From assembly GCA_958009085.1 (NCBI GenBank), contig OY253675.1, positions 930,001 through 994,000 of the forward strand: a DNA stretch of 64,000 nt. The letters run 5' to 3'. The DNA is from Protoeuglena noctilucae. Its lineage: Eukaryota. Both the position numbers and the translations under genes were made by a program. The notes beneath the pieces are model-generated. The model was given only the letters and a program-made list of their open reading frames with translations, did no database searches and was not told the origin of the DNA. Shown piece by piece: positions 26,701-64,000 of this stretch (positions within the stretch are counted from its first letter, which is position 1; each line of letters opens with the position of its first letter).

Positions 26701-29700
26701 AGGTCAGGGTGTTCTGCCGCGTGCGCCCGAGTGGCGTGACGGGTGACGCCTCGACGCCCTGCGTGGAGTGCTCCGAGGAGGACCGGGAGGTGCAACTGTG
26801 CGTCCCGGGGACACGCGGCGGCAAGGGGTTCACGTTCGACCGGGTCTTCGGGCCCAGGGCCACGCAGGTGAGGGGTAGAAGGGCTGGCATGCCACCGTGT
26901 CATTGCGCAATGGCCACGGCAGGGTGTGCCACACGCGTGCTTGCGCCATTCGACCGCAGGAGGACGTTTTCCGCGAGATGCTGCCCCTGGTGCGGTCGGT
27001 GGTGGACGGCTACAACGTGTGCGTGTTTGCGTACGGCCAGACAGGGTCGGGGAAGACGTTCACGATGACGGGCCCGGAGGGGGCGGGGCCGACGGACGCG
27101 TCGCGCGGCGTCAACTGGCGGGCGCTGGACGAGCTCTTCCGGCTGCGAGCCGAGCGGGAGGAGGAGGGCTGGGCGGTAGACATCGAGGTGCAGGTGCTGG
27201 AGATCTACAACGACAACGTCCGGGACCTGCTCTTCGTGGCGGGGGCCGAGGGGGGCACGGGCCTGGTGCACGTGGGGTCCAGCCGCAAGGACCTGGCGCA
27301 GGCGGGGCGGGAGGAGGACTCCGAGGCAGAGGGCGGGGAGGGGCGCAGGGGCGGGGGGGAGCGGGGGATGCTGGGCCGCAGCCGCACGGCGCGAGACCTG
27401 CGCGCCTCGGCGACGGCGTCCCCGCAGCTGCAGCGGAGTCCCTCGGACGCCGGGCGGCGCGGGGCCGGGCGCCCCCCGTCGGCGTGGTCCGAGGCCCCCC
27501 GCGCCGCGCGGTCGCTGAACGTCATGTCGACGCAGCGGTCGGGGCTCAACGTCCCTGACGCGACGCGGGTGGCGGTGCAGTCGGCCGCGGAGGCGTGGTC
27601 GGTGATGGCGAGGGCCGAGGCGGCGCGGGCGTTTGGGGAGACGCAGATGAACGAGCGGTCCTCGCGCTCCCACTGCGTGGCCTGCGTGGTGGTGCGGGCG
27701 TCCGAGCCCGGCGAGGCGCGCCGCACCGTGTCGTGCCTCAACCTGGTGGACCTGGCGGGGTCGGAGCGCCTGGAGCGGTCGGGGGCGGAGGGCGACCGCC
27801 TGCGCGAGACGGGCCACATCAACAAGTCCCTGAGCGCCCTGGGCGACGTCATGGCGGCCCTGCAGAGCCGCGCGCGCCACGTGCCGTACCGCAACAGCAA
27901 GCTGACGCGGCTGCTGCAGGACTCCCTCCAGGGCCAGGCCAAGACGATGATGTTCATGCACGTGGCCCCCGAGGGTTCGTCGTACGGGGAGTCCCTGTCG
28001 ACGCTGCTGTTCGGTCAGAAGGTGGCCTCCGTGACCCTCGGGCAGGCCCAGCGCAACGTGGAGCGCACCGAGGCCACCGACCGGGCGCAGGCGCGGGCGA
28101 GGGAGAGCGAGGCGGCCGAGGCGTTGTCGCGCATGCGGGGGGAGCTGGAGGAGGAGAGGAGGCGGGCGCGGAGGGCGGCAGAGGAGAGGGACGAGGTGCT
28201 GGGGTGAGCGGGGCAGAGGGATGATTGCACATGTGTGGGGGAGGGGTTGAAAGCGAGGTTGCTAGCTGGCGCTCCCTCGAGCATTACAAACCCTTTGGCC
28301 CCCTCCGCTTCCTTGCGTTGGCTTAGCTGCCCTCCTGTCGCCTCGCAGTCGCCTCGCGGAGGCGGAGCGGCGGCTGTCCGAGCGAGACGCCGGGGCCTCC
28401 GCAGCGCTGCTGAGCATGCAGGGTCCCCAGGGGGCCCTACTCCGCGCCAGCCGTGAAAGCGGGCCCGTGCTGTCTCACGCCCTGCCGAACGTGGATTTGG
28501 AGGCTGAGGAGGAGGGCCACGACGATCACGGGACGAGCGTGAACCGGAGGAACCGAGGGGCCCGGGCCTTGGGTGCGGAGGGGGCAAAGGTGCTGTCAAG
28601 CGATGGGCCTGGGACGCCGGGCGGGCCTGCGAGCGCGGGGCTGCGGGCAGTCGAGGCAGCGGTGACGCCCATGGATGCGTACGGAGAAGAGGGGTGGGGC
28701 GAGAGCGCACCACGCCCGGCCTGGGAGCCAGCCTTGCGGGAGCCGTCTCTGCCTGGGACACCGGACCGCAGCCCGGCTGTGGAGCCAGGTGACGACGCGG
28801 GGCTGGCGTGGGAGGCGCGGCTGGGAGCGGGGGAGCCCCGCATGTGAGCAACACGTCCCGTCTCCTCCCCTCCTCCGCAGCCCTGGATCAGGATACGCCC
28901 CAGTCTCCTCAGCCTCTCCTGGAGTCCCCACTCCCGATACGCGCAGCCACGCGCCCGCACCCCGTGTCCCTCCGCGCGTCGGCCGAGGCTGCGCTCGACC
29001 CCACAAGGGGACCGTCTGCCTCGGCGTCTTCCTCATCCAGGCAAGTGACAGTGGCGATGCGGTGCGCATGCACTCCTCACCCAGACAATCGTTGCAACTG
29101 CCTGGGTGAAATATTCAAGCGGCAACCGTGACACTCTGCCCTCGTGCTCTTCGCCACCGCAGGCCCTCCCGTGCCCAGTCGCCCTTCGCCACCCTCCTCG
29201 CTTCGCGGTCCGTCTCCTACGCCCGCCGCCCCACCTCATCCGCCACCGCGCCCGCCACCCCGGTGCACGCGCGGCACCACGGCGGGGGCCCCTCCAACCC
29301 CAGCACCCCCCCGCCCACTCCCTACGACGACAGCTACGCCCACCGCGGCTGGGCCAGACCCGACACCTCCAGCAGCCGCCGCAGCAGCTCCGGCGGCCAG
29401 GCACCCCGCGGTCCCCCGTCCGCGTCGCCGTCCGTGGCCTCCTCCCGGGCCGCGACCCCCGTCGGTGCGGCGCTGGGGCCCTACGCCCGCTCCGCCACGG
29501 GAGTCCGGGCGGTGCGGTGCTCGGCGTCGCCGTCGCCGTCGCTGCCCGGGGCCAACGGGGTGGCGGACAGGGACGGCGTGGCCGCCATGCCGCGACACGT
29601 GTCGTCCGGAGCACTGACGGGGGTGCGCGCCAGCACGGGCACGGCGGTGTGGGCGAACGACTATGCGTCACGGTGAGGGGCGATGGAACTGGCGCTTCTC

Positions 29701-37883: not shown

Positions 37884-39571
<1,688 letters not shown>

Positions 39572-40273
39572 GGGCAGAGAGCAGGGACGGCGACGGCGAT
39601 GCTAGGGGAGGAGAACATAGCAAAGACACGGGAGGTGGCTGTGGCACTTTGGGGAGCCGGTGCAGGCACATACACGGGGTTGCTTGGTGGGCGAGGCCTT
39701 GCCGCGCCCCGTTGCGCCCGCCAGCTCTTGTGGCCGTGCCGCTCCCATTGCGTGTCGAGGATTTCCTGCGCTGCATACGTCGCCTCGGTGCATGGGATGC
39801 CACTGCCGGGGAACAGATAAGTTCGGCAGGTTCAGGGCATACGTGGGGCTCGCGTGTTGGTTTGGCGTCGGCTGGCGATGGCGACGTGCACCCCCTGCGC
39901 TCGACTCGCCGCGGCCAGGGCCACGCCCGCCTGCCTGTTTGCAACCGTGGTCCGTTGTCTTGTCGAAGCAGCTAGCAGCGAGGAACGCCTAGCGGGCATT
40001 CAAGGGCGCATTGGGATGCGGTGCAAGCGCATGGCAGTCTGCGCCTTGCCATGCAAGCGGCAGGGTCGGCGACGCCCCTTCCAAAGGACAGCGTCGAGCT
40101 ACCGCCCGAGGCAGTGCCGGAAAGCAACGCAGACGGAAGTCGCTTCCGACAGCCGAGTTGCAATGCTGTGCGCAGCGTGGTATAAGAGACACAAGGTTGG
40201 CCACCCGTTTACCCTCCAGTGCTCAGAACGCCGTAGCGTTGGGACGACACCCAGCAGACATAAGCGAAACCCC

Positions 40274-42441
40274 TCAGTCCTGCATGCCGTTCTCGAGGAG
40301 ATAGTTGGCGGCCATCTCCTCGTTCTTGTCGCAGATGAGGTACGCCTCCACGCACGCGTGGCGGTCAAAGCCCAGGGCCTCCAGGCGCTGAATGGCCGCC
40401 ATCTCCTCCTGCAACGCGACGACGGCGCTCCTTTACCTTTCCTGAGGTCAAGCAGCCCGCAAGTGCTGGCTGACTCGAGATTGCCAAGGCAGCTCACCTG
40501 TGTCAGCTCGATGGTCTCGGCCCCCTCCATGCCCTCCGCATCCTCCCCGCCCTCCCCGCGGATAATCTGCAGGAACTCCTGCTGATTGCGGAGGATGGCC
40601 TCCACCAGGTCCGGCTGCGTCTGGGCCAGGCCGTGCAAGAGCTGGGGGAGGAGGTTGGGGTTGGACCCAATGGCCGCCCTGCGGGTGACAGGGGAGGAGA
40701 CGTGTGCGAGGATGAAGCACATGCCGTACGGGGACACTTGAGCGCAGGCTGCAAGGGGACATTTCAAAAGCAAAGGCAAAACACGCACCGGAAGGCCTGG
40801 AAGGACGGGTGGCTCTGCATGTCCTGCAGCATGGCCAGGTCTGCTGCGGGGTCCGGCGAGCCCCCCATCTCCTGCGCAGCCCCACCGCCCCCGCCCCCGC
40901 CACCAAAGATGTTGAGCGGCTCGCCCGCGTCCGCATCCGCGCCCTCACGGGCCGGCGCCGCGGGGGCCTGGGCTGCCGGGGCATGGGCCGCGGGTGAAGC
41001 CGCCGGAGGCTGCCCCTGCGCCCGCCAATGCAGAGGGTGGTTTGCTACGATGCACCACACGCAGTCAAGTCAAGAGACAAATTGCGCCCATTGAATGCGA
41101 CTCTGTCACCCTGCGCCACACACCTGCCCGCCCTGCGCTCCGCCCATCTCCGGGATGCCCGTCATCAGGTACTCGACCGCGCGCTCGGGGTTGTTGAAAG
41201 CCGCCCTGCGACGAGGACGCCATTGCCAGTAGCACAGCTCGGCAGGTCGACTGTGCCGCTCGCCAACCGCCGTCCGCGTTGCACAAGCAAGCCTCAATAG
41301 GCACCCTGGGACCCAAGAATGCAGCAACCGAGGACAAGAGCGAGCAGCAGCAAGCGCTTGGCACTCGCCTCATGGCCTTGAGGACCATCTCACGCTCAAA
41401 GCCCATGTCCACGATGCTGGAGACCGCCTGCTCCAGCTCCGGCCCCACGGCAAACACACTCGCCCCGCTCGGCGCACCGGGCGCAGCATGGGCCTCCTGG
41501 GAAGGGGCAGCAACGGGGGCAGTCTGCGGCGCAGGCTTCTCCTCCGCCTTCTCCTTTGCCGGCTCCTGCGAAGCGAGACGGGGTAGCCAGTGGTGTCGGG
41601 AGCGCCACAGACAGTCATGGGAGACCCCGGACGGTAAGTGCCGCGGGGAGCACAGGCGGGCGCGCGGCTGGAGGACGCGTGGCGCTCACCGCGACCGGGG
41701 CCGTGCTGGGCTGCGCGGCGGGCTTGGGAGCCGCGGCCTTGGCGCCCTTCGGCCTCGTAAATAGCACGAAGAACGAGGCCGGGGTCAGGTTGAGCGCAGA
41801 GAGCGCCTGGTCGTCAGCTAGGATCTGCGGACAGAGCGTCGCACAACGGGTGCCAGCGCCGGCGGGGCGGGTTGGCATGCCTCGCAACATGCGGCGATGC
41901 ATGAAGTTGCCACGCGGCCGAGTCGAGCGTAAGCGACTCGATCTCTTCCGGCGCAGAGGCACCGCACGAGCTCCCCCCACCTTGCCCTGCAGAATGAGCT
42001 GCTGCTGATCCGTCTCGTAACCCTCGCCCTTGATCTCGAAGATGCGCGCCTTGGCGTCCGCAACCTGGCAAACACCGAGAGCCGCAGATGTCGAGAGAGC
42101 GCGGCCATTCGGGCGGGCACGAGCACGGTGTTCACGCAGAAGCCCCAGGCCACTGCAGCCCTGGCCGGCGGCGACAGCTGCAAGTACATCGAGCCCTGTG
42201 TCATCCGCCCGGGCCAGCCCCGCCAACGCCGGGCGAGATCCCCCAGAGGGCGCAGTGACCGAAGGCTGGCTCGCTGGACCCGGCGAGGCCGCGCCACTGA
42301 CCCCGCAAGCGCACGGGTCGCTCGAGTCGCAATATCAGGGAGCTGCGCGCGCCGCAGAACGGCGCGTAGCCTCGCCTTGGCGTCGTCGGGGACTTCGACG
42401 GGGAACGACTCGTTCTTGATGGTGCGCACGTTCAGCTGCAT
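40274..42441 (-). CDS. RAD23: RAD23 ubiquitin receptor / excision repair protein
   Basis: UBL (MQLNVRTIK...LILQGK|ILADD), UBA1 ([34 protein letters not shown]), STI1/XPC-binding region (NPNLLPQLL) and UBA2 ([10 protein letters not shown]...[13 protein letters not shown]). Seven introns. Confidence 0.97.
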
Positions 42442-42784: not shown

Positions 42785-44697
42785 TCAGTTGCGGGGGACC
42801 TCCTCCTCCTGCTCCTCCTCCTCCGGCTGCCGGTCCTTGACGTTGTGCTTGTCCAGCCACGTCGCGAAGGCCTCGAACTCCTCGCCCTGGTAGTCCGAGT
42901 CCCTGGTGAGGGACTTGTAGAAGGCCATCTTGGCCGCCCGCTTCGTCCCGACCTGCTTCTTCTGCGCAGTGGTCAAACAGGGGCTGGGTCACGACCGGCC
43001 TTTGACAGCGAAGCCACAGGAAGGTGCCCCCCACGCCGCCCGGTGCGGTGCCGGTGCCCTGCGTCAGTTCTCACCTTGGCGGCCTTGCGGTTCGACGCGG
43101 CCATGGCGGCCCGGCGGACCTCCGCGAAGTAGGGGTTGAGCTTGAGCATGGCGCCGAGGTTGCGCAGGGGGTTCTTGCGGAGCTTGGCGCGGCGCGTGCC
43201 CTCCTTGGGTGCCGCCACGATGGACTGGACGGCGCCGTCATTGACCAGGCGCGAGGCGTCCGAGTTGGTGACGCACGCCCGCGGCAGGCGCCACCCCTTC
43301 TTGGCCTCCGAAGTGCTGGCGTGCGTGCCGAACACCTTGTCCAGCGCCTCCACCGCCCCCTGGGTCCAGATGCAGAAGCGCCCAAGGTGCCCGCCCGGCG
43401 CCAGCTGCAGGAGGTTGAGCGAGTGGACCGACGCCACCTCCACGCCGGGGATGTTCCGGAACGCCTTGGTGATGCCCTCGTCCTTGTCGAAGATGACCAT
43501 GGGGCCCTTGCGCGTCACGTACCGCCGGTTCCTCCACTTGCCCTTGCCCGCCCGGATCTTCTTGGTGTCCACGCACTGCAGGGCGAGCGAGGGGTACGTG
43601 AGGAACAAGCACAACGCGCATTCAGCCAGGGCAAGGCATGAGCCCCGTGCCCATCCGCTCAGTGCGCGCCATCGTGGCTTCCCTACGCGGCTCGCCTTCT
43701 CCACGTCGGGGAGCGCGCCGACGGCCTTGAGGACTGCCATGGCGTCCTTGGTCTTCTTGATGGACTCGGCCGCGTTGGAGAGCACCAGGGGCACCTCGCT
43801 GACCTTCTCGATGCGGTGGCCGCGGGCCATGACCAGCGCGGGCACGGCCGAGGCGGCCAGCGCCGAGCAGACGGCGTACCGCTTGTTCTTGATGTTCACC
43901 TTCCGGTGCCACCGCCTCCACGTCTTGGTCGGCGCGAACATGTGGCCGCCGCGGCACATGTTGCCGAAGGCCGCCTGGCCGGAGCGGTGCGTGCCGCCAC
44001 CCGGCACACGGGGGATACGGGACACAGCCCTGCGCACGGAGAGCAGGAGAGTCAATGTAAGAAGGCGCCGCGTCCGGCGAGGATGCCCGGGCCCTCCCGG
44101 CGCGCCAGGCGGAGGGCGGCTGTGCAGACGCGCGCGTCGCCCTCCCGCGCGTCCCCAAGGCGCGCTCGCGCCGCGCAGTGGCACCCCACAGGTGGACGGT
44201 ACGTCATACGTGAGGCAGGCGCACGTCTCGCGCCCCAATGCGCGTCGCACCTGCCGGTGCCCCACGACTCGGCCGACGTCTGGTGGCCGGCCTTGGTGGA
44301 CACGGCGTAGGGCTGGCGGTGGTTCTTAGCCATGTTGGTGTGGACCATGGACACGATATCGGCACGGATGGGGGCCGTGAAGACGGCAGGCAGGGGCGCC
44401 TGGCCGACCTGCGGGGAGAGGGGGCGCGCCGCGGTGCGAACGGGCGCGAGAACCAATGACGGACGCGCTTGGTGCTCCAGCCGATCCCCGGGCGCCGCCG
44501 GTCGCCCGGGACGGCCCCGGAGTCGGCCAGCGCTCGACCGGATCTCCCGAGGCACGAGCGGCGCCGAGGCGCGAAGGCAGGCGATGAGACGCAAAGCATG
44601 CGGCGAGGGTCCTCCCGCGGGGCCCAGGGGCGGCCCCACGGCGCACCTTCTTGCCCTCCAGGTCCTGCACGGTGACGATAGGCCTCGCCGCCGCCAT
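42785..44697 (-). CDS. RPL4: 60S ribosomal protein L4 (uL4)
   Basis: [10 protein letters not shown]...[41 protein letters not shown]...[16 protein letters not shown]. Four introns. Confidence 0.99.
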
Positions 44698-45112: not shown

Positions 45113-47482
45113 ATGGTGTGCCTGGCTGCTGCGATCGTCTCCAAGACGGGGCGAGGTGGGTCGCACCGCGGTCGAATGCCGCTTCGCGCTGCGGTGCCTT
45201 GTTGGGATGCTCGTGAACATCATGTACCCGCTTCCGCGCCCTCCTCGCAATGCGTTGCACGATTGTTCTGGCGAAGAAGTAGCTGCTCGCACAGCGCGCC
45301 CGCGCGGGTTGCGGTAGGGGGCTGCTGCGACGCGCGCGATGCGCGGACCGACGCGCGGCCCCTCCCCCTCCCCCGATCCGCGCAGCGCTCGTCGCGCGGC
45401 AGTACCACAACATGAGCCGCATCCGGATCGAGGGGCTGCTTTCCGCGTTCCCAAAGCTGCTGGGATCCGGGGCCAAGCAGCACACGTTTGTTGAGACCGA
45501 GGTGCGAGCCCCCCGCGCGCCTGCGCCCCGCCGTCGAGAGGCGCGGAGGCAGTGTTGCCCTCGATCCGGTCCGCGCTCCGCGCTCCTGCGTCCGGGCGCG
45601 ACGGCCCTCACCTCTGTCCCGCGCAGAGCGTGCGGTACGTGTACCAGCCGATTGAGGGCATGTTCCTGGTCCTGGTGACGAACCGGCAGTCCAACATCTT
45701 GGAGGACCTCGAGACCCTTCGGCTGCTGGCCAAGATCGTGCCGGACTACGCGCCGACGCTGGACGAGGCGGGCGTGGCCCGCGCTGCCTTCGAGCTCATC
45801 TTCGCGTTCGACGAGGCCATCTCGATGGGCCACAAGGAGAGCATCACGCTGTCGGAAGTGCGGGAGAACACGGAGATGGCGTCGCACGAGGAGCGCCTGC
45901 ACAAGATGATCCTGCAGTCCAAGATGGACGAGGCCAAGGCGGCGATGAGGAAGAAGGCGCTGGAGATCGAGAAGACCAAGATCGACAGGAGGAGGGGCGC
46001 GGGGCCGGACGCGGGGATGCCGGGGCCTATGCCGGCCGCGGCAGCGCGGATGCCGGACACTTCGGCAGCAGTGGCGGCCATGGCGGCGGCGGCGTCTGCG
46101 ACGGCCGCGGGCAAGGCCTCCGGGATGCAGCTGGGGGCGGCTAAGGCGGTGGGGAAGGCGCCCGCGGTCGGCGTCGGGCGCAAGGCCGGGGTCGCGATCC
46201 TGGAGCAGCTGCGGGCCGAGGGGGAGGTGGTGGATGCGGCGCCCATGCAGGTCGCGGGGCACTCGGCAGCGCAGCAGCAGGTCCTGCAACAGGCAGCCGT
46301 GTCGTCGGACCCCGTAACTGGTGGGTGGCTGGGGCGCTTATGCCTCCGCGGATGCGGCACCGTTTGCCGTTGCACTTGTGCAAGCCACCGCATGGCCTGC
46401 AGCCACCGCGTGCCAGCACGTGTTGCGCTCCGTGCAGCAGATGCAGAGTGTGCCTATCTCCCGCGCCTGCCCGCAGTGCTGGTGGAGGAGCGCGTCTCGG
46501 CATCGCTGTCCAAGGACGGCGGCGTCGAGGCCACGGACCTGCAGGGCCAGATGTCCCTGACGATCAACACAGACGAGGCCACGTTCGTGTCCCTGGGCCT
46601 GTCGGGGCCGCAGGACGGCTTCCAGTTCAAGACGCACCCCAACGTGGACAAGCAGGCGTATGCGTTGGGGACGCTGCAGCTCAAGGACCCGAGCCGCCCC
46701 TTCCCCACGGGCACGCCCCTCGTGGTGCTCAAGTGGCGCCTCCCCTCCCTGCCCGAGTCCAAGCTCCCGCTCCTCATCACGTGCTGGCCCAACCCGGGCG
46801 CCGACAGCACGTCCATGACCCTCGAGTACGAGGCCTCGGAGGCCATGGACCTTTCCAACGTGGCCATCGCGAGTGAGATGCGCACTGGCGGGGCGGGGTG
46901 GATGGGCTGGGGGGCGCACTACGGCAGTAGATGTGCGACCCTCTTGGTTCTCACTTCAACCGCTTCGTGGCCATGTCATCGCTTCATGCGACCCCAGGCT
47001 GGGATAGTAGTCAGGGTGTTGAGTGACGCGAGCCCTCCGCCCCCGCAGTCCCTCTCCCGGCATTATCCAAGCCCCCCGCAGTGGGGGACTGCGAGGGTCA
47101 GTCGCGGTGGGTGTCCAAGGACAACCTGCTGCTGTGGGAGGTGCCCCTCATCGACGCCGGCAACCGCAGCGGGTCCCTCGAGTTCTCCGTCCCGGGACAA
47201 GTCGACACGGACGTCTTCTTCCCCATCTCGGTCGCCTTCGTGTCCAAGGTATGACGCATGGACACCTTGGTGTGTTTGTGGACCCATCCGGACCGCTTCG
47301 TGACGCATGCAAAGGCAGGCGTGACCCACCTGTCGGCCGACTCAATTGCTGGCCCCTTGGCCCTTTCGCAGACCACGCTGTGCCCCTTGACGCTGGCCGG
47401 GGTCACCAACCTCAAGGACGGGTCGCCTGTCAAGTATGGGATGCACAAGCAGCTGTCGTCGGACAAGTACGTCATCGGTTGA
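45113..47482 (+). CDS. ARCN1: Coatomer subunit delta (delta-COP)
   Basis: [39 protein letters not shown]...VRYVYQPIE...[13 protein letters not shown]...MASHEERL, plus a mu-homology domain with [11 protein letters not shown]. Five introns. Confidence 0.97.
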
Positions 47483-50800: not shown

Positions 50801-53800
50801 TCGGACGCCGATGCGGGTGCAGGTTTCGAGAAGAACATTCCATGTGGCCCACAGGAGTGGTCTCATGCAGCACTGTCTGCCGCCGAGGCGCTCCACGCCA
50901 GGCAGAGGACGCCAAGCGAGGACACCAGTGGCTCAGAGGGCGGTGGTCATGCATGTGCAGCAGCCCAGCCTTCAGCGTCCTCCGGGGCTCCCTCGCCGCC
51001 GTCCAAGGGCGGGCGAGGGTGGGCCGCGCGGCCCTCCCGCTGCTCCCTCGAAGGCGCCCTCCCTGCGCTGTTGCTGGCCAGGGACGCGGCGGCGGCGGCA
51101 GGCGACGCAGGCGCGGCGCAGGCGATGGGACGCACCGTGGCCCTCGTGGCCTCCTGCGGCGCGACGAGCACGGTGAGCTGGCGTGCCATGGCTCGTGCCG
51201 AGGTCAAAGCTGCATGGACCCAGCCGCTTCTGGTCATGCTGTTGCTGCCATTGCCTCTCAACCGTTCCGCCCTCCGCCTCCTCAGCACCCTGCCACTCGC
51301 AACGCCTGTCTCCAGGCGCTGTCGGGCAGCGCCACCTCCGTCCTCGTCAGCCCCTGGAGTCTCGGGCCGATCGGCGGCGCCCTCGGATATGGGGCCTCTC
51401 TGACGGAGTTCCTCTCTGCCAGCCACGATGGTATCGACGACAACGCAGCTGCCGCGTGCGTGGATCGATACCCCGCATGTCTCCTCAGCGCCCGCCTGGC
51501 CATGGCTTCGGCTGGGGTCGACACGGGCGGCGGAAGCATCGCCGACCACCCGGGCGCCCTGGCCAGCCTCGCATCGTGGGTGGAAAGCGCGATGGACGCC
51601 TCGCGTCACGCCAGCGCCTCGGGATACGTCCACCTGGCTTCCGCCCACGTGCTGCTGTCGTCCGCGCACCTCGCGGCCGGTGACTCTGCGCGTGCGTCCC
51701 GCGCCGCCAGCAGGGCCTGCGGGCTCCTCACTGCGCTGGCGACCACCTCCAGGGAAGCAGCGGGGGCTGGCCTTGACGCGACGACCCGCACGGGCCCTTC
51801 CGCGGGCAAGGCGGCTGTGCATCGCGAGGGCGCCAGCAATGGGGCCTCCGCGGCTCCCGTGCGCCCTGCGGGGGGCTTGTCTCTGGTGGGGGTGGCGGGG
51901 CTGTACTGCGGGGCGCTCCTGGCGCTGTCGGATGCGCAAGAGAGCATGGGACGCGCGGACGAGGCACAGGTGGCGGCACAGGAGGCGCTGGGGTGAGGCA
52001 CGCGGCCTGGGGGCGACCAATGCCTCGCCGACCAACGTTGCATTCCCACAGCCATGGGTAGTGACACTACCCAGGCCCTGCTGCTCACTGGTGTCCCGTC
52101 TCGCCCCCGTAGCGTCGCCTCGAGTCTCCCGGTGGCCATTCGGGACGCCCTGACCCTGGCATGCCACCTTCGCATCGAGACTGTGCTGGTCCGGTCCCTC
52201 GGCTCCACCGCCGCCCTCCTGGGCCCGGACGCTGGCACCAGGCTTCACGCGGACGCCACCCACGATGACTCTTCGTGTGCGCCAGCATCGCGCGGCACCG
52301 CTGAGTGGCCAGGGTCGGCGCCCAGGCAGGCGTGCGGGTGGCTCCTGCGAGCCCAGGCGCTTTCTGCGAAGGCAGAGGGGGCGGTGCTGCGAGAGGAGCC
52401 ACAGGAGGTGAGGCTCGGCAGTCATGTGGCATCGACCTGCTCCCTCAGTACTCCATAATCGCTCTCTGCAGCTTTGTGGCTGCACATGCCCTGCCCCGTG
52501 TGCCTCCACAGGCGCTGGCCTTGCTGTCGCGAGCATCGGCCGCTGTGGACGCGGCGGAACGGTCGCTCGGCATGCTGGAGGGACAAGACCCACATTGCCG
52601 AGCTGCAGCTGCGGAGGAGGGCAGTCAGGGAACAGACGACCGCAACTGCGAGGACACCGCGTCGGCCGTCGACGGGGCTGGGACCCGGGGCCGCCGTGGC
52701 CGCCGCTTCAAGGCTGCGAGTACCGCGCCTGCGCAAACGCAAGCGGTGGGGGACGCCGGGGGCCAGGGGTGCCACCATGGGGATGGCGGCAATGGCTCAG
52801 GGGCTGCCGAGGGCGTCCATGCCTTGGGGAGCAGGAGCTTCAGTGGTCACGCGGCCAAATGGGTGGCCTCTTGCCGCTGTCAAGTGCACCTCATCACCGG
52901 CCAGGCCCTGGCAGCGGGGGGCGACGCCGGCGGTGCTCGGGAGGCCACTCGCATGACCCTGCAGCTGGCGACTATGGGGCAGCTGACGCTGGGGGGGGCT
53001 CTAAAAGCTGCGACGCTGCGTCAGGCGTGGCAGCTGCGGGAAGCGGTGTTGCGCGGGGAAGCAGGGGCCGCGCGTAGCGAAAGCCGGGGTGGGAGGGCGC
53101 GCAGGGCGACGCGGGGTGCAAGGGACGAACATCGAGAGGAGGACGCGGGTGCTGACAATGCCACCTCCCTGTCCAGCCTTGTGCGGGCGTTTGCGCTGTC
53201 CCGCGGGTGCGCACGCGAGAGGGCGGCCACGGGGGCGCTGCTGGCTGCTGAGCTCGCGCGTCGGGGTCGGCATGTGGGGGCGGCGTGGGCGGTGGCGGCG
53301 GCGGCGGGGGCTGGGCAGAGCATGCACTACCGCCACCACCTGCTGACTGTCGTGGAGCGGGCGAAGAAGGCAGGAGCGGCACGTGACGACGACGACGTGG
53401 ATGCACGCGGCAGCACTGAGTGCGCGCTGGGGGCGTTGAACGCAGGTGCGTGGGAGCTTCCTGCGTCGCTCAGTGCCCCGACAGAGTCGCCCGATGTTCT
53501 GGGTGGGAGCATGGAGGCAGATGCGGACGAGGACGAGGCCCTCGCGGCGCGGCTGGAGGCGTGGGGCGCGGAGGCTTTGGGGTGTGCCCTGAGGCCGGTG
53601 CTTGCGGCGGCTGACGTGGTTGTGGCCGTGGCTGTGCCCCCGCCGCCGGGGCAGGCGCCACTTGAGGTGCGGAGGCATGCGTTGCAGCTGCAGCATGCTT
53701 GTTGCTCATTTGATGGGCCACACTGTGACAGCGGTGCCCTGTTCTCCTTGCAGGCGCTGCTGGGCCCGGACTGCCAGGAGGGCGACAGGGCTGGCGCACA

Positions 53801-55813
53801 GCAGGGCGACCCAGGCACGCCGCCCGGCCGAGGGACGTCCAACGATTCCCTCTTTTACCGAGTGCGGCAGGGCCGCGTTTCCCAGATGCTGGTCGTCGTC
53901 GTCACGGGCCCAGCAAGGCAACATGGGGCGGTGCAGGCGTGGGCGTCGCTTGTGGGACCCGGGTCAGCAGAGGGAGCCCGCGAGACAGGCCAAGTGGGAG
54001 GGTCGCCGGGCAGCAGCAGCGACGAGGAAGCGCGCGACCCGCCGACGTTGGCGTCCGTGCTTTGGGGCTTCGGGTCCGTCCTGCGCGCGAGCGCTGAGAG
54101 CATGCGTGGGGCCGCGGCGCTGGAGGGGGAGCGTGAGAAGCGGGCGTGGTGGTCGCGGCGCGTGGAGGTCGACGCGATGCTGTCCCGGGTGCTGCGGGAC
54201 ATGGGCGAGGTGCTGGGGGCGCAGGTGGCTGCGCGACTGGCGGGGGGCGGGGACGACTCGCAGATGGGCCAAGGCCTGGCCTCCCGGATGGCGAGGCTGC
54301 AGCTGCGGGAGGACGGTGACACAGACATCGCTGGGACGCGTGAGGGTGGGGACACAGAAGAGCCCCCCGGTGCTTCATCGCGATCCGTGGTGCTGGTCCT
54401 GGGTCACCCGCTGGACGCGCTTCCCTGGGAAAGCGTCCCCGCGCTCCGACACGGCCGGCGCGGCGTCTACCGCATGCCGTCCGCCCCCCTCGCCGCCGCG
54501 GCCGCCGCCCGACTCGGTTCCGGCCTCAGCCAGGCACCTGGGGAGTCGCCCGCGCTGCCCGTGCCGGTGGACGCGTCGCATGGGGTGTGCGTGGTCAACC
54601 CCGGCGGCGACCTGGACGCCACCCAGTCTACCTTTGAGCCCTGGCTCTCCTCCATCCCCGGCTGGACGGGGCACTTCGGGCCACCGCCCCCCGACCCCAG
54701 GCGAGGCCATGCCATGGAGCGCAGCACCTGCTTCCTCCCATGCTCCCTTCGACCAGCCATCAGCTTCGCTCCTTTGCATCTCCTTACCCTCGCGTCGCCC
54801 AGCCCATGCCATCCCACCCCATACGCATCTCTTCCGCCCCCAGGCACGTGCGGGCGGAGGCCGCCGACGCAGGTCTCTTCGTCTACATGGGGCACGGGGC
54901 GGGCGAGCACGTCCTGGGCCTCGCGCCGACTTCTAAGGGCATCTCGCCGACGCCTGCATCGGTCCCTGCCAGCGTCCTGGTCGGCTGCAGCAGCGCGCGG
55001 ATGCGTCCGCGTGGCCTCTACGCCCCCTCGGGTCCCCTGGGGCACTACCTGGCCTGGGGCGCGCCCGTCGTCGTGGGGACGCTGTGGGACGTGACGGACC
55101 GGGACATCGACCGGTTCGCAGCCAGGCTCTTGCGGGGGTGGGTGGGTCCGGGTGCCAAGCCTGAGGGGTGCGCCGCGGCTGCCAGGGACCCGGCCGGGGA
55201 AGGGCTGGTGGTGGAGGCCGTCCGGGATGCGGGACGACAGGTGGGACACGTGGGGCACGTGAGTGGGGTCGGGGATGGGGTGGCGGTGATGATGACGCCT
55301 GCGCCAAGGAGGCGGGCGGGGCGGCTGCAGGCGATGGGCCTCGCGACGCCGGCCGCGACGCCGGGGGTGGCGACGACGGTGAAGAAGTCGCTTTTCTTGG
55401 AGGCGCGCCGTGGGGAGGGTGACGGTGGTGTCGCTCGCACGCCCGGGGCGGCACTCAGGGGGCGGCGGGCGGCCCGGTCTCTGGCGGCAGAGCTGGCGGG
55501 GGATGAGGCGGGGGAGGCGTGCAGCGCAGACGGCGACGCGGGGATGAGCGAGGGCGAGGGAGGTGGGCGGGAGGCGCGCGGGACGGGGGTGTCCAAATTG
55601 AGGGGCGGACGTGGCAGAGACAAGGCCCACGATTCGCAGTACAGCGAGGCTGTTGGATTGGACCACCGTCTTCCCTCGTGCCCCGCCGTCGCGGTCACGG
55701 ACGCGAGGGGGGCGTGCCGGCTGGCGCGGCTGATCGGGGCGGCGCCGGTCTGCTACGGCCTGCCAGCGGCGGTGCACCGGGGAGCGGGGCCAGCCGGGAA
55801 GCAGGCCTGGTGA
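47884..55813 (+). CDS. ESP1: Separase (peptidase C50), large multi-exon; 5' end uncertain
   Basis: C-terminal WWSRR, LPWESVPAL...YRMPS, VVNPGGDL, FVYMGHG (His at 54893), VGCSS (Cys at 54986), GTLWDVTDRDIDRF and LIGAAPVCYGLP. The long Ala-rich helical N-terminal exons are assumed to belong to the same gene. Confidence 0.9.
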
Positions 55814-55997: not shown

Positions 55998-56868
55998 TCA
56001 CGCAGACCCCTGCCTCTGCGCCAGGCAGTCCTCCAGCACCTCCTCAAACGCCTCAGGCGGCTGCGCCCCGCTCAGCTGGTGCTGCCCGTCGATCACGAAG
56101 AAGGGAACGCCCGTGACCCTGTACTTGGACGCGGGCCCCGACGCCAGCTCCGCCCGCACCTCGGCCGCGAAGGCCCCCGGGTCCGCCAGCACCGCCTCGG
56201 CCCCCTCGAGCCCCGCCCGCTTGGCGCACGCCGCCAGCACCTCCGCGTCGCCGATGTACTGCTCCTGGGAGAAGTAGGCCCGGAACATCTCCTCCGCCAG
56301 GGCATGCTGCGCCTTCGGGCCCCGCGTCGCGGCCCAGGCCATGAGGCAGTGCGACGTGAAAGTGTTGCCCGTCAGGCCGCCCATCTTCAGCTCCAGGCCC
56401 TCCTCCCGAAACACGCCCCGGAGACGCTCGAGGATCGGCTCGGCGCGCGGGCCGAACTTCGCCTGGGACGGGCGACGCGATTGGGGCGTGGCCGTGGCAC
56501 TGCTGGCGGCAGCGCAGGGTCGAAGAGGTGCCGCAATGCCTCCAATTGTGCGTCGACACCGCACCTGGTACATCTCCAGCTTGTTCTCCCCCTCGGCGGG
56601 CGCCCGCGGGTTCAGCTGAAACGCGTGCCACACGACCTGCGACTCGACGCGCCCCTTCAGCCGCTCCAGCGCAGTGTCGAGGCGACGTTTCCCGATCCAA
56701 CACCATGGACACTGCGAAAAGGCCCGGGAGGCTCGGCGCGTTTGACGTGCCGCGTAACGACCCAAGCCCTCCAGGGGGTCCTGGGGCCACTGTAAGGCCC
56801 TCGACACCTCCCACACGCACCACGGTGTCCGAGACAATGTCGATGCGGATCCGCGCGGGCGACCCCAT
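55998..56868 (-). CDS. DsbA/FrnE-family thioredoxin-fold oxidoreductase
   Basis: IRIDIVSDTV|CPWCWIGKRRL...HAFQLNP...GNTFTSH...VTGVPFFVID...LSGAQPPEAF. Two introns. Confidence 0.92.
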
Positions 56869-56999
56869 CGTGCGAATCGTGCAAAATGTCTTGTCAATCT
56901 TCCACCGACGGAACGACGGGCTATCGCGTTGTCTGGGGCGAAGGAGTTGAGTCTGAGTGCTCGCCACGAAAGAGGAGCAGTCGGTCGGGATGATCCCAG

Positions 57000-57640
57000 T
57001 GGGCCCATCAGCGCTAGCGTGCCCAGGTTTCTCACTGGCGCCGCAGGTTCTCCCCCGGCCGCGGGCGGGGTAGCCCAGTAGCCATCGAGCGCCCAGCACT
57101 GCTGGGCATGGTCACAGACAAGCGAGTCGAGGCCCTGGGCCAGGAGAGCGTGGAGGTGCTGGTGGAGTGCTGGTGGGTTCTTCTCCACTGCCCAGCGGAA
57201 ATGATGCGCGCCCGTCTTGGCGGGGCTGGGGCGGAGACAGCTGGTGAGACCAGTTGCCTGGTGACAGGTCTCCAAGCCTTGGAATACGTTGTGCATGGAT
57301 TGCACCGTGGCCTGCACGAACTGAGCATCGTCTGCAAACTTGCTGGAGGCTCTCCTGGGCGAGGTGTTCATCGGTGCGGAACGCACGGAGGGGAGGTTTG
57401 CAGGGTCCGGGCACAGGGAGGCCCTTAAGGTCAGGATTGGAGGCGACCAGCTCTTGGAGTGCGAGCGCCACGAGGATCAAGAGGGAGGGGGCGAGCGGGC
57501 AGCCCTGGTGGACGCCCGTGGAGACGGCTGAGGCCATGGCCCGGCTTGAAGCTGGAAGGTGGCCGGAGGGGTGATTTGCCCGGAATGCCGTGTCTGAGGG
57601 AGACGCTGTGCTGCACCTGTCAGAACAACATGCCAGAGCG
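57000..57640 (-). mobile_element. Degenerate non-LTR (LINE-like) retrotransposon reverse transcriptase fragment
   Basis: GVHQGCPLAPSL at 57516-57481, then a frameshift, FADD at 57338-57327, followed by ATGL and a YLG-like VRNLG at 57035-57021. This is the order of non-LTR RT motifs. Boundaries are approximate. Confidence 0.75.
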
Positions 57641-57845: not shown

Positions 57846-59718
57846 ATGGACCTGTCCCTCTACCTTCCCGGCGCCCATGATGGCAAAGGCCGCGGGGCCA
57901 GTCCTCGCGCCTCGCGCGCGAGCGTGGACCTCCCGCCGCTCGACATGACCGAGTTCGCCGAGGTAAGCTCGGCTGCCGCGTCGGAGCCGTATCGAAGCCT
58001 CCGCCGGCTGCAGTGCCGCCTTGAGATGCCAGGCGCTTGGTCCCGTGCGGCGGCATGGAGGCGGGCGTCGCCCCCCTCTGCGGCCTCTCATTTCGCGTTA
58101 CCCGTGCTTGGCAACGCATCGGCCCCCGATCGCGACCTGAGCGGCCCCAGCCACGTTGCAGGTCCCGGCCTGGCCCGGCGAAATCGACGCGGGCACCGTC
58201 AGCCCGCTGCCCACGGCCCGCTCGGCGCGCGCATACCACGTTGAGGGCGCTGCGCCCGCGGATAAGGAGGCAATTGACGCGTTCCAGATGGCCCAGTACG
58301 CCGGCGGGGCCTGGGGCGGGGACGACCTGCTGGAGCTCTTCGCCGACTACGTGTACGACGGGGAGAACGATGGCGCCAGCGGATTCGCCGGCGGCCGCGA
58401 GACGCTGTCGCTCAAGGAGGCGCCCTCCCCCTTCGGCCTCAGGGCGGCCGTGAACGGAATGGTGAGCGGTGCGGGGGCGTATCCCCGCGGCCATGCGGCT
58501 CCTCGGGTGCCTTTCGATGCGGGGTGGCGCGGACGGCCGGCGTCGAGCCCCGTGGCGCGCGCGCGGGGCGGTGGGGAACTCACCAATCCCGCGGCGTTAG
58601 CGCCCCCGTCGCGTCCTCAACCCGCCGATTCCCGCGCCCGATGCGCGTTTTGAGTCCATAGGGGCCCCTGAGGCCTCTCTCCGGGCGCCGCGCGGGCCGC
58701 TGCACCGCTTCCTGCCCGCCTCGAAGGGGTGGCAGCCAGGGGCGCCCCGTCGGGACACGCTTCGCGCCGCCGCGCCGCCCACGGCCGTCATTTCAAACCC
58801 TCGATTTTCTCGCAGGATCCTCCCGTGGACGCGGCCGCGACCATGAGCCCCTCCGTGTCGGCCAACTCGGACTCGTCCTACGAGCCGGGCGACATGTTCG
58901 TCCCCAACTACGCCCTGTCCCCCGACGTCGACGGCGGCGTGTTCGTGCGCGACACCGACACCTACGCCACCTCGAAGCGCGCCAAGCCCGCCGCGCCGGC
59001 CCGCCCCCGGGCGCTGGCGCTGGCCCCCGCCGCGGGCGTGGCCAAGCCGCGCCCGGCCTCCCGCCCCCGCCCCCGCGCCCCGAGCCCCGCGCTCCCCGTG
59101 CCCGTGAGCTTCAAGTGGGTCGCGCCCTCGCGCAGCAAGGACCGCCCCCTCCAGGGCAACGCCAAGTCCAACGCCACGGTGCTCCTGACGGGCTGCCGCT
59201 ACGACATCTCCGTCAACTCGCTGCTCCTGGAGGACAACGCGCTCTTCGAGGGTATGGTGCCCCCGGCCGTGATCGCCAACGGCCTCACCCTGGCCCACCC
59301 CCCGCGCCTCTTCCTGGCCGCCACGCTGCTGTGCCTGCTGGACGGCATCTCCGACGAGGACCTTATCGCCAACTACGGCCTCAAGGACATCCCGCGCATG
59401 CGGCAGGGACACCCTCTGGACAAGGGCATCATGAAGGTGCGCGGGGCAGCGGCTGTGGGAAGTCGCCAGCTCGTGCGGTCGGCACAGCACACCTATGCGC
59501 TCGCCCCACCACGCGCTGTCCCCCGCGTGCCCCCCCGCGTCCCTCGTCCCGCCTCGCCCCCTCCGCAGCGGCTCTTCCCCCGCCGCAAGAAGGGCACCAC
59601 CAAGTACGAGCTGTCCGAGGGCATTGAGGCGCTGTTCCGCGAGCGCAACGTGGCGTGGCCGGCGCTGACCATCACCGAGGCGGACGCGCAGTACCTCCTC
59701 GACAAGTACGGGAAATAA
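57846..59718 (+). CDS. Hypothetical 395-aa protein, 4 exons (57846-57962, 58162-58461, 58816-59436, 59569-59718)
   Basis: Three clean phase-0 GT-AG introns and very strong C/G third-position bias in exons 3-4. No family recognised. Confidence 0.75.
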
Positions 59719-61204
59719 CCCGTGCCGGCTGCCGCCGCCTACGCGCCTCGTCGGGCAGGGGCGCGCGGGCGGAGGGGCAGCTGGGGCCAGGGCGGCACGG
59801 GGAGGCGCCGCGGGGTTTGGGACTCCTGTGTCCGGGGGCAGCGACACGGGGTCACGGGTTGGGCAGGTTATCTTCACTCGGCAGGGCCTCTTCACTTGGG
59901 CAGGGCTTCGTGGGCAGGATCTGAGTTATCTTCGGGGCGATTGCCATCGCCCCGACCCCCGGGGGTCTCCCCTCAGGCGGGATTCACGGGGGTGGCCAGG
60001 ACAGGATTCGTAGCGCAGAGTAGAGCAGCGATTAGGACAGTCAGGACAGGTCATGTTACTGCAGGCAGATGTTCAGCACCAGGGCAGGTTGTCATTCCGT
60101 AGGGTAGAGTAGCGCAGCGTATGGGCAGACACCCCAACACACTTTGGCTGGCAGGCGACTCCACATGCACCCGCGGCCGCCCGGCGCGCGGTCCGTGCTT
60201 GGCGTTCCCAGGCAGGCATTCCCTTCTCTCACGTCACTCCCGGTCTTCACCTGACCCGACCCGGGGGGTCCGACCCATGGCTCCCGCGCGGCGGCGCGTC
60301 TCCGGGCCCCTCGTTTCCCGGGGCCGGAGACGCCATGTGCCGCTCCGCGTCCGCCATCGCCATGGGCCGCGTCTCCACCCGGGTGCCCCCCACCGCCAGC
60401 CCCGCCCCGACCCTCCCATCCATTTCCATTGGCCGGGGCGGCGGGCAGCGCCGGCCTCCGTTTCGGCCGCGCGGGGGGTCGCGACCCGCATCACCGCACG
60501 GGCGCGCGGGCTTTGCCACCTCTGGTCGACTTGGGCTGTGGGGCGTGGGCTCGCCGGGGCACCCCTCCCGGGCCCCGCCCTCGCGGGACAGTAAGGTAGT
60601 CTGATAGGCCGGTGGGCCAGCTGGCGGAGGTCCTCCGGGGATGGTTTTTGTGATGCGGCGGCGGCGGCCAGGAAGCGGCGACGCCCCCTGCCACTGTTGC
60701 CGCAGCCACCCCCGCTCCGCCGGGCCTGCCGAATTGCGCGCGCTTGAGGCGCGCATCATGCATGTCCTTGTTTGGATGGTTTGGTTTGGTTCGTTCCCCT
60801 TGGCCCGCCTCAGCCCGCGCGGCCGGCCGCTCTCGATGGGGCAGGCCGCACAGGGCAAAGGGCGGATGGGGTGGAGGGCTCCGTGGGTTTAACGGAGAGT
60901 AGCTTCCGCCGCGAGCTGACAGGCGCATGCCTGGGCCGCCGGCGCGGGTTTGGGCTGTGCAGGGGCCGGGGCAGTGAGCCGCGCGCGACCCTCAGACAGC
61001 AATATCTGGATTGTGCATGTGATGCGGGCCCCGTCCCGATCTTGCACCGTTTTCTTTGCGCAGGCACGTGCTGTCATCCGCCCGGTGATCGCATGTAGAG
61101 TTCCTTGTGACTTCCGGCACCTGTGTGGCCACCAACACCTAGACTGATTGAACGAGCGCATTAGGAACATCGAGGGTACCACGAGAGTAGAGAGGGCGCG
61201 GCTG

Positions 61205-61331: not shown

Positions 61332-64000
61332 TCAGGGCTCTTGTGCCGCAGCTCTCCTCTGGTATTCCCGCTTCTCCTCGTCGCTCGCCTCGCGCCACAT
61401 CTCCGCCAGCTTGGCCATCACCTCACGGGGGGCAATGCCGGGGTGGCGAGACGTGACCTGGGGTATGGGAGGAGGCACGCGTGTGAGTGGGATGCAAGTG
61501 GCCGAGATATCGCAACAGTACAGGGAAGGTGATGAGAAAGCGATCGGGTTCTAGACCGCTCTCAGCCCTCACCTCAGCGCGCCGCTCCTTGGTGAAGAGC
61601 AAGTAGCCCGACAGCTTGCGCCGAGGCTTTGCCGCCCCCGCCTCCACCTCCCCGTCAGCCTCGGCCTTTGCTTTCGCCTTCCGCCCCCTTGCCCGCTTCT
61701 CCCCGCCGGCCCCCGCCCGCGCCCTCGGCCCTGCCGCCTCCAGCGCCGACGCGACCTCACTGGCGTACCGCTCGCTGTCAGAATGCGCCAGGGCCTCGTA
61801 CTGCGGGAGACGAGACCAGGAGAAGACATGAGCAGAGGAGGGACATAGGCACATGGCCTTTGACCGGAGGACTGACTAACCATCCTTCCACCGTCACAGA
61901 ATGTCACGATGACCAACCGTCTCCGTCCTTCCCTAGTACCTGTGTCCCACATGCAGCGTCTCCCTCACCTTGGCCCTCTCCTCCGCCCCCAGCGCCTTCC
62001 ACCCCTCGCCCAGGCGCTTGGAAGCGTCACCCATCGAGATGCCAGGCGTGGCAGCCCGCACCGCAGGCCCGTGCTCCAGGCAGTAGAAGACGAAAGCCCC
62101 CCGGGGCCGTTTGATGTGCCGCAGGGGGTCCGGCGCCGCCCCTGACTCGGGGCCTGACTCAGCGTCGCCCGCGTCAAACGACTGTGTCAGGGACGCCTTG
62201 GGGGGGTCCTCGGCGCGGGGCCTGCAGAGAGGGACGGGGCAGATCGTGTGAATGTGACTAAGTGACTGGATGACAGAGGCTGAGCTGTCAGTTGCGTGCA
62301 TGTCAGCAAGCAGACCCCAACCCACCAATATGCAGCAACCACCCCCCCCCTTGCCTGCTCACATCCACTCGCCTACACCTTTACGCCCTCTCCTCCCCAG
62401 CGACCTCACCTCCCCCGCCCCCTCGCAGCTTGGCCCCTCCCACCCGCGCCCCTGCCCCTCCCGCCGCCCCTGCCCCCCGTGCCCCTCAATCGTTTCTTGT
62501 CCACCCACTCCACCGCCGCCTCCATCGTGACCTCCCTCCCCGCCTCTGCCCATGCCTTGGGCACCGTGGCCATCACCCCCTCGTGCTCCACATAGGGACC
62601 GTACTTGCCTGCCTTGAGGTACATGCTCCCGCCGCGGTCGGGGTGCGTACCCAGCAGCTGACCCTTCTGCAAGGCGCCAGGCAGGGTGAGGTGACGGTGT
62701 GCGAGCTGTGTACATGATAGTGGTGCACAGGAAGCGACGTGTAAGGCCACCAACCGCGGTTTGGCAAAAGCCGACGGTGGTTGTGTGGCCGCAGCTGTGA
62801 ACAGAGCGAATGAAAGGGACGAAACGAATGAGTTGCATCTTGCAGACATGTTCCGTATCACATTGACGCATCCCCGTGCCACCATCCCACCCTGTCCCTC
62901 GCCTTGAGCGTGAAGAGCTCCGCCACTTGCGCCGCAGTCGCGGTGGTGGGGTCCCATGCCTCGGGGCAGTTGGCCCTCTCGAGACCACTCGGGGTGTCCA
63001 TCTCAAAGTACACGCCGTAGGGGCCGTTCTTGGCCACCATCCTGCGAGGTTGGTATGCAGGGGGGGCAGTGAGTGTACAGCCACACACGCATCGCCACGC
63101 ACAACCACATTCCAGCCCACACCCCCCTACCATCACACGTTCCCTCGCCTGTACCCCGTCTCTGAGTGCAGCCCCACGTCGCGCGGCAGCCCCGGGTCCC
63201 TCCCCTCCGCCATCGCCCGCTGCACCTCCGGCCACCCGCTGCCCAGCACCGGCAGAGAGAAGTTGCAGTCCCCCGGGCCAGGCACCCCCTCGTCACTCCC
63301 CCCATCTAACGCCTGGCTCGGGTGCTTGTCATGCGAAACCCCGTTCGTTCCCTGTGCATGTGCCTGTTCCTCTTTTTGTGGCTGATCTCCCTTGGGTGTC
63401 TTTTTGCGGAAGTTGCTGCATCCCAGGAAGGGCGCCCCCGTCTTTAAGACCTTGAGCTCCAGGCGACCGGTGCGGCACCTGCGAATAGTGTCGGGAGAAG
63501 GGAGGTGTTTGAACTTATGACTAGCAGCCAGGTTGCCACTGCAGACAACGCGCGGCTGAGTGGGCAGGGCGCACCCACACCCACACCCACACTGTTACCC
63601 ACACCCACACCCACACTGCTACCCGCACCCGCACCCACACCCACACTGCTACCCACACTGCTACCCACACCCACACCCACACTGCTACCCACACTGCTAC
63701 CCACACCCACACCCACACCCACACCCACACTGCTACCCACACTGCTACCCACACCCACACCCACACTGCTACCCACACTGCTACCCACACTGCTACCCAC
63801 ACCCACACTGCTACCCACACCCGCACCTGGGGCACGCCCGTGGGTCGCTGCCGTCCTCCCTCGCCAGAAACAGCTGCGGCGCCAGTCTCTCCGTCAGCCT
63901 CTCCAGTACCTGGGGTCGGTCGAAGCCCATGGCCCCACGCACCGCCCCCTCGAACGGCTGCCAGAAACCCCCAAGCACGTCGCGCCACGCGGCCGCACCG
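61332..64000 (-). CDS. topA: 3' part of a bacterial-type DNA topoisomerase IA (probably organellar) with C4 zinc ribbon, C-terminal repeats, RGG linker and two HMG boxes; 5' part outside the window
   Basis: [12 protein letters not shown]...[20 protein letters not shown]...PFLGCSNF...GDCNF, then [23 protein letters not shown] and LLGTHPD...GKYGPYV, then HMG boxes [11 protein letters not shown]...LGEGWKAL...AK|YEALA and [12 protein letters not shown]...[16 protein letters not shown]. Confidence 0.85.
63572..63822. repeat. Intronic microsatellite built from hexamers ACCCAC and ACTGCT
   Basis: About 250 bp of interleaved acccac/actgct units inside topoisomerase intron 63479-63826. Confidence 0.95.

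Follow-up and report, generated by a model that had tools for sequence, protein, structure and literature searches.

A bacterial-type topoisomerase IA probably joined by splicing to tandem HMG boxes in Protoeuglena noctilucae

Type IA topoisomerases vary chiefly in their C-terminal DNA-binding appendages. Here we analyze a candidate appendage in Protoeuglena noctilucae, where, at the edge of a 64,000-nucleotide (nt) stretch (NCBI GenBank assembly GCA_958009085.1, contig OY253675.1, positions 930,001 to 994,000 of the forward strand; hereafter "the window," with positions counted from its first letter), the C-terminal exons of a bacterial-type topoisomerase IA (TopA) are followed on the minus strand by exons encoding two HMG boxes. 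The reading we favour, with a probability of about 0.7, is that of a single gene, in which the TopA exons are spliced in frame to three HMG exons.

The closest described enzymes are the organellar type IA TOP1 proteins of Arabidopsis (At4g31210) and C. merolae (CMI252C), which resemble the window protein in their Toprim_C_rpt C terminus and in being encoded by a nuclear gene with introns (PMC4166229). AtTOP1 is dual-targeted, and the type IA TOP1 of green plants is of alphaproteobacterial origin (PMC4166229); the Zn-ribbon, alphaproteobacterial-like backbone of the window TopA is as reported there for that group. The organellar enzymes are described without HMG boxes (PMC4166229), whereas the window gene adds approximately 200 residues with two such boxes past the tail. 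TopA of Chlamydia trachomatis likewise combines a bacterial-type TopA with a C-terminal eukaryotic chromatin-type domain (PMC12445093, PMC4758235); however, that domain is SWIB rather than HMG, and the gene is bacterial as opposed to a spliced eukaryotic one (PMC12445093).

Basic or RGG C-terminal appendages that strengthen the nucleic-acid binding of a type IA enzyme are also found in the Lys-repeat tails of actinobacterial TopA, which confer processivity on the Streptomyces enzyme (PMC5714199), and in the RGG box of TOP3B, which is required for its activity (PMC10969213). These tails are unstructured only, whereas the window gene adds folded HMG boxes beyond its tail. Two tandem HMGB-type boxes with a basic linker are likewise present in TFAM, Abf2p, and Chlamydomonas HBD1 (PMC8157925); each of these is a small protein that stands alone and has its own targeting signal, in contrast to the window module, which is probably the C terminus of an enzyme. 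No printed description of a TopA-HMG fusion was found in the main texts of the literature searched; the word "HMG" occurs 0 times in two recent surveys of type IA C-terminal diversity (PMC9369019, PMC10969213), and "topoisomerase" occurs 0 times in the main text of the HBD1 paper (PMC8157925).

Open frame and the TopA/HMG junction

The minus strand was examined from 64000 to 61000. Seven exons (A to G; Table 1) share one open frame that runs from the window edge at 64000 to the TGA at 61334-61332; as the window ends at 64000, the upstream TopA exons fall beyond its edge. Four marine metatranscriptome runs of one study contain about half of the stretch's words (98% for DNA-type runs), and the contigs of three RNA runs (X1, X2, and X4) were compared with the window, together with those of X5. 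At 100% identity to the window, the RNA contigs lack five of the six introns of the gene, each in two to three runs. Against a G+C content of 68% for the whole window, the verified introns lie at 0.57-0.63, with G+C at third codon positions (GC3) of 0.79-0.87 in the exons.

At the junction, the exon D frame stops at the TGA at 62408-62406, which lies inside the donor AG/GTGAGG (exon end 62410). The acceptor CAG at 62224-62222 is preceded by a pyrimidine tract, exon E starts at 62221, and joining 62410 to 62221 preserves the frame through a split Arg codon. The donor, the in-phase acceptor, and the in-frame continuation to the stop at 61332 claimed in an earlier note on this DNA were thus confirmed by frame reading, and the separation that the note had put at approximately 185 bp was measured at 188 nt. 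We infer that the donor at 62410 is the partner of the acceptor at 62222. The 8-mer AGGTGAGG at 62404-62411, i.e., the candidate donor, exactly matches two donors verified by RNA, at 61963-61970 and 61567-61574. It occurs 13 times in the window versus 3.0 expected (0 of 100 shuffles reach 13), and 3 of these copies lie on the strand of the TopA-HMG gene, namely the two RNA-verified donors and the candidate donor. Among all GT/GC sites in exon D, this is the only full consensus match, and its phase is correct. The 188-nt interval has an intron-like G+C content of 0.59, and the GC3 of exon E is 0.86 from its first codon.

The acceptor side of this junction is bounded in RNA. Contigs over exon E end at 62223, the AG of the acceptor, in all three runs (X1, X2, and X4), past which they carry 0, 2, and 3 extra letters that did not lie on the genome. 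Contig ends of this kind are expected where an internal exon is joined to a preceding exon whose last letters are AG, as is the case for exon D, and are unlike an mRNA running unspliced through the acceptor. No RNA contig lies within 62224-62519, and the TopA-side contigs halt at 62520-62558, just ahead of the repetitive Arg/Gly-coding tract; since the stretch 62224-62519 is repetitive and of raised DNA k-mer depth, this coverage gap is uninformative on the junction either way.

Two further features of the introns were observed. GC-AG boundaries occur in 2 of the 5 RNA-verified introns of the gene, both with AG/GCGAGG. GC donors seem common in Protoeuglena noctilucae; gene finders restricted to GT would accordingly mis-model genes of this organism. 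In intron 1, Tandem Repeats Finder reports an array of a 12-nt unit (63572-63827, approximately 21 copies) that takes up nearly the whole intron and at which the DNA-run contigs break and k-mer depths reach 9,666 and 27,791 versus approximately 226 elsewhere; a depth this extreme implies that the 12-nt unit is dispersed genome-wide in very many copies.

TopA backbone, HMG boxes, and their relatives

Pfam scans were made on single-exon translations, and domain limits inside exons (Table 1) are approximate, as they were derived from exon lengths and Pfam coordinates. Exon A alone gave no Pfam match, while exons C and D match Toprim_C_rpt (PF13368), a C-terminal repeat of the bacterial TopA subfamily. 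Compared with the C-terminal regions of Zn-ribbon bacterial TopA, the window part shows 33% identity over approximately 310 residues (114-119 bits), and its Arg/Gly tail aligns with the basic tails of these bacterial proteins, in keeping with the earlier note's remark that bacterial TopA often ends in this manner. By these scores and alignments, together with the tree described below, the TopA part appears to be of the Zn-ribbon, alphaproteobacterial-like type, as that note had proposed. For the ribbon itself, Zn_ribbon_Top1 (PF01396) scores only E 0.12 in exon B, below the cut-off, and in the alignment to bacterial TopA three Cys are in place (the third at 63420-63418) with none at the canonical fourth position. 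Approximately 45 low-complexity residues in exon B replace the first bacterial C-terminal repeat, with a lone Cys near the end of this stretch. Judging from these residues, the ribbon may no longer bind zinc.

Both HMG boxes exceed the gathering score of HMG_box (PF00505; cut-off 25.4): exon E alone gives 40.6 bits over profile positions 1-49 and exon G alone gives 37.6 bits over positions 21-56. An intron interrupts each box, and the missing portions of both are found in exon F, with a basic linker between them. The earlier note had called the two boxes complete, but box 2 is slightly short, stopping at about profile position 56-58 of 69. The best PDB match of box 1 is HMGB1 box B (E 3.8e-13), followed by HMGB2 and NHP6A; the match to Abf2 is at E 8.4e-5, and SOX-type boxes are weaker. 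These HMGB-type matches suggest that the box binds and bends duplex DNA irrespective of its sequence.

An exhaustive HMMER search with exon E returned 966 matches at E <= 0.001, of which the best 150 were examined: the 20 of at least 600 residues by Pfam and the other 130 by motif scan. One of the 20, P0144 (1425 aa), carries Toprim, Topoisom_bac, Toprim_C_rpt, and four HMG boxes in a single open reading frame (ORF). One of the 130, P0109 (a Logan ORF of 324 aa), carries Toprim_C_rpt, an Arg/Gly-rich linker, and two HMG boxes by Pfam, and aligns collinearly with the spliced model (25% identity, E 5e-22). In P0109, the last Toprim_C_rpt is also preceded by a partial box, namely the final part of an HMG box; the HMG boxes of this protein may be interleaved with its TopA repeats, or its ORF may extend across an intron. 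In the ESM Atlas, exon E led to generic HMG clusters and P0109 to no usable match.

A further search with residues 880-1260 of P0144 yielded 105 proteins, in 69 of which PF00505, PF13368, and PF01131 are present in a single ORF; the relatives include P0219, an MMETSP transcript-derived ORF with the TopA-HMG architecture. The named sources of fused proteins are Seminavis robusta, Mayamaea pseudoterrestris, Nitzschia inconspicua, Cylindrotheca fusiformis, Amphora coffeaeformis, Epithemia clementina, and a Bacillariaceae metagenome-assembled genome; two of these organism names were checked as diatoms, and the remainder we take to be diatoms as well. The TopA-HMG architecture is thus common in public protein sets, and the window gene is not its first sighting. 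The earlier note knew of no description of this architecture, which stands for the literature searched but not for databases, where the fused proteins are labelled only "DNA topoisomerase 1/I" or "hypothetical." Several of their N termini (e.g., P0144, P0226, P0182) begin with a hydrophobic, signal-like segment and then an Ala-x-Ala-Phe type site, an arrangement that we assume to resemble diatom bipartite plastid presequences; many other starts are uncertain gene calls.

The "DNA topoisomerase 1" entries of Seminavis robusta (P0167) and Nitzschia inconspicua (P0202), known from database entries only, share the domain order of the window gene, with Toprim_C_rpt repeats followed by 2-4 C-terminal HMG boxes. 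However, these diatom proteins appear to have a different TopA backbone and are encoded as single ORFs with no Arg/Gly linker, whereas the window gene is spliced and possesses such a linker. PF01396 is absent from the Pfam lists of all 69 fused relatives (0/69), to which the window TopA part scores at most 47 bits, as against the 114-119 bits for Zn-type bacterial TopA. The window gene is therefore a structurally distinct further case, with a Zn-type backbone, an Arg/Gly linker, two boxes, and probable splicing over a stop codon.

A quick maximum-likelihood tree (68 rows, 326 columns) was built with the first 18 of the 69 fused proteins listed as longer than 1150 residues, the window fragment being placed by fragment addition. 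The window falls in a 15-row clade with Zn-type bacterial TopA (Shimodaira-Hasegawa-like approximate likelihood-ratio test [SH-aLRT] 98), and the 18 diatom-type fused proteins form a 28-row clade with 10 HMG-less relatives (SH-aLRT 100). The window branch is very long (2.93) and of odd composition, and an approximately unbiased (AU) test of a grouping of the window with the diatom clade, named after the tree had been seen, does not reject it (log-likelihood difference 21.2, p 0.144). On these alignments and this tree, an origin of the window fusion independent of the diatom fusion is favoured. The ten TopA proteins without HMG boxes nested in the diatom TopA-HMG clade (P0233-P0242) represent either truncated gene models or a secondary loss of the boxes.

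One gene or two

Splicing in frame, as the earlier note had proposed, is favoured by the identity of the donor, by RNA contigs in which the acceptor bounds an exon, by phase and coding composition, and by precedents elsewhere. The RNA check that the note suggested across the junction has been answered on the acceptor side only, by the three runs described above; no contig from X1, X2, or X4 joins 62410/62221. Several other observations also weigh against a single gene. (i) All RNA evidence consists of assembled contigs of one study. (ii) Zn-type bacterial TopA proteins terminate at or near the aligned position of the TGA at 62408-62406, basic tail included, which would make a stand-alone TopA the natural product. 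(iii) An in-frame ATG at 62301-62299 lies within the 188-nt interval, with the nearest in-frame upstream stop at 62361, and is open for 27 codons into exon E; the earlier note's statement that the HMG exon lacks a convincing start is true inside exon E, which has no ATG ahead of HMG box 1, but this upstream ATG had been overlooked. (iv) No orthologue was recovered from a close relative: a word-indexed search for longer proteins with exon E gave 404 candidates, with 0 at E <= 0.001; a search of metagenomes gave 4 loci at only 43% identity over 36 residues, which are unrelated HMG genes; and exon D retrieved as longer proteins just bacterial TopA and the window's own genomic ORF, with an HMG box in 0 of 14. 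The clusters to which the window's own ORFs (P0015, P0001) belong consist of genomic read-through ORFs throughout, with no spliced form among them.

The second and third of these observations would be accommodated by two adjacent, never-joined genes; i.e., a TopA ending at the TGA with its Arg/Gly tail, and a separate gene for a protein with two HMG boxes (HBD1/TFAM-like) that starts at ATG 62301, as could occur in a compact genome, or at an unseen upstream exon. Stand-alone proteins of this kind reportedly occur throughout the green algae (PMC8157925), and the lack of a bridging contig is as two genes would predict. However, an unspliced HMG mRNA from 62301 or higher should give contigs continuing past 62223, whereas all three runs stop there, two of them continuing with letters unlike the genome. 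Moreover, merely 105 nt separate the TopA stop from ATG 62301, the candidate donor perfectly copies the gene's own verified donors, and the interval is intron-like in composition. We thus consider two separate genes improbable.

A position between these readings is that both forms exist, with the main products separate (or TopA-only, if the intron is retained or polyadenylation occurs early) and the fused mRNA present as a minor, conjoined isoform due to read-through. A stop codon inside the donor would let splicing choice toggle between TopA-only and TopA-HMG products, and exon E contigs ending at an AG common to both contexts, spliced and unspliced, would be consistent with branching of the assembly graph at this site. 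No RNA contig of unspliced context was found in 62224-62409, however, and the single-ORF fused proteins elsewhere indicate that a fused protein may be the only one made; this arrangement too would appear to have little probability.

Proposed mechanism and the surrounding window

For a single spliced gene, the following mechanism is proposed. With the stop codon lying in the 5' splice site, excision of the 188-nt intron would delete it and link the Arg/Gly tail to approximately 200 residues, comprising an acidic linker, HMG box 1, a basic linker, and the slightly short HMG box 2. Judging from its family, the encoded enzyme would carry out TopA-type relaxation of negatively supercoiled DNA, with the catalytic part encoded beyond the window. 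The HMGB-type boxes, which would bind and bend duplex DNA with a preference for distorted DNA, would take the place of the basic tail at the C terminus of bacterial TopA, or lengthen it. By analogy with the Lys-repeat tails of Streptomyces TopA, the RGG box of TOP3B, and the SWIB-bearing TopA of Chlamydia, the Arg/Gly tail and the two boxes might tether the relaxase to DNA, probably that of an organelle nucleoid, and tethering could in turn raise the local concentration or processivity of the enzyme.

The fusion probably arose when a donor formed across the ancestral stop codon and captured a downstream gene for a protein with two HMG boxes. The aligned bacterial-type stop and the in-frame ATG at 62301 can be read as traces of this origin, and are equally the basis of the rival explanations considered above. 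A retained intron would still yield a TopA-only product. More broadly, and as a tentative proposal that we consider possible yet rather doubtful, HMG boxes may have been fused independently, in separate lineages of algae, onto different bacterial-type TopA backbones (Zn-ribbon and alphaproteobacterial-like here, another in diatoms), with splicing versus retention at the donor over the ancestral stop able to switch, in the present gene, between TopA-only and nucleoid-anchored TopA-HMG forms. If true, independent fusions would point to recurrent selection to tether an organelle relaxase to nucleoid DNA by means of a eukaryotic DNA-bending module.

A role at organelle nucleoids is plausible for the TopA-HMG protein, by analogy with two sets of reports: bacterial-type TopA of plants and algae is reported in plastids and/or mitochondria only (PMC4166229), and the DNA of mitochondria and of the Chlamydomonas chloroplast is packaged by proteins with tandem HMG boxes (PMC8157925). 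On a separate axis, the fusion could be real and its product nuclear, given that RGG tracts and HMGB-type boxes are typical nuclear features and that box 1 is best matched by the nuclear proteins HMGB1/2 and NHP6A, with Abf2 weaker; any targeting peptide would be encoded beyond the window. The same two sets of reports stand against a nuclear function, which we regard as unlikely. If the organelle assignment is correct, a bacterial-type relaxase equipped with the DNA-bending module of organelle DNA packaging would link supercoil control directly to nucleoid architecture. The recurrence of the architecture in diatoms and Protoeuglena noctilucae would also provide a tractable case of repeated domain capture. 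The architecture is further relevant to annotation, as such genes are named merely "DNA topoisomerase 1"; practical value is modest.

Table 1. Exons and introns of the TopA-HMG gene, followed by other genes identified in the window
Feature	Position	Strand	Description	Basis
Exon A	63827..64000 (5' end cut by window edge)	-	End of TopA core-to-C-terminal connector; start of first Zn-ribbon Cys pair	Open frame; 63827/63478 joined in RNA contigs X1, X2, X4; aligns to bacterial TopA
Intron 1	63479..63826	-	GT-AG, 348 nt, 12-nt tandem repeat array	Skipped in RNA contigs of 3 runs
Exon B	63149..63478	-	Remaining Zn ribbon, ~45-residue stretch, Toprim_C_rpt start	Covered by RNA contigs; bacterial alignment
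Intron 2	63042..63148	-	GC-AG, 107 nt, donor AG/GCGAGG	Skipped in RNA contigs X1, X2
Exon C	62903..63041	-	Toprim_C_rpt repeat	Pfam PF13368 E 2e-5; RNA contigs
Intron 3	62667..62902	-	GC-AG, 236 nt, donor AG/GCGAGG	Skipped in RNA contigs X1, X2, X4
Exon D	62410..62666	-	Last Toprim_C_rpt (~62645-62472), Arg/Gly (RGG-like) tail (~62486-62410)	Pfam PF13368 E 4.4e-14; RNA contigs cover only 62520/62522/62558-62666
Candidate intron 4	62222..62409	-	GT-AG, 188 nt, TopA/HMG junction	Donor 8-mer as in verified donors; G+C 0.59; no RNA contig within or across
Exon E	61969..62221	-	Acidic low-complexity linker, then HMG box 1 (~49 first profile positions, from ~62115)	Pfam HMG_box E 3.4e-10; RNA contigs of 3 runs end at 62223
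Intron 5	61801..61968	-	GT-AG, 168 nt, interrupts HMG box 1	Skipped in RNA contigs X1, X4
Exon F	61573..61800	-	Remainder of HMG box 1, basic Lys/Arg/Ala linker, first part of HMG box 2 (from ~61626)	Open frame; RNA contigs 61571-61676 and 61701-61800; 61677-61700 in no listed contig
Intron 6	61458..61572	-	GT-AG, 115 nt, interrupts HMG box 2	Skipped in RNA contigs X1, X2, X4
Exon G	61332..61457	-	Remainder of HMG box 2 (to ~61344), stop TGA 61334-61332	Pfam HMG_box E 3e-9; RNA contigs
Kinesin motor	26879-28204	+		Pfam on long ORF
PCNA	38005-38703	+		Pfam on long ORF
XPC-binding (RAD23-like) protein	40102-40944	-		Pfam on long ORF
Ribosomal protein uL4	42976-44325	-		Pfam on long ORF
Adaptor-complex mu subunit	45495-47300	+		Pfam on long ORF
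Separase (Peptidase_C50)	52305-55091	+		Pfam on long ORF
DSBA-like thioredoxin	56001-57476	-		Pfam on long ORF

The other genes listed for the window are nuclear, and gene density is roughly one per 3-5 kb; the long ORFs of 57847-59925 gave no Pfam domain. In the PDB, the ribosomal protein uL4 is best matched by land-plant uL4 (351 bits, versus approximately 335 for fungi), a difference too small to assign a lineage. Downstream of the TopA-HMG gene, a poly(A)-signal argument based on a TGTAA 122 nt past the HMG stop was dropped, as RNA contigs run more than 1.6 kb beyond 61200. The contigs over the last HMG exon and its 3' flank extend approximately 1,630-1,900 letters beyond 61200, which would represent either a very long 3' untranslated region or overlap with a neighbouring (convergent) transcript.

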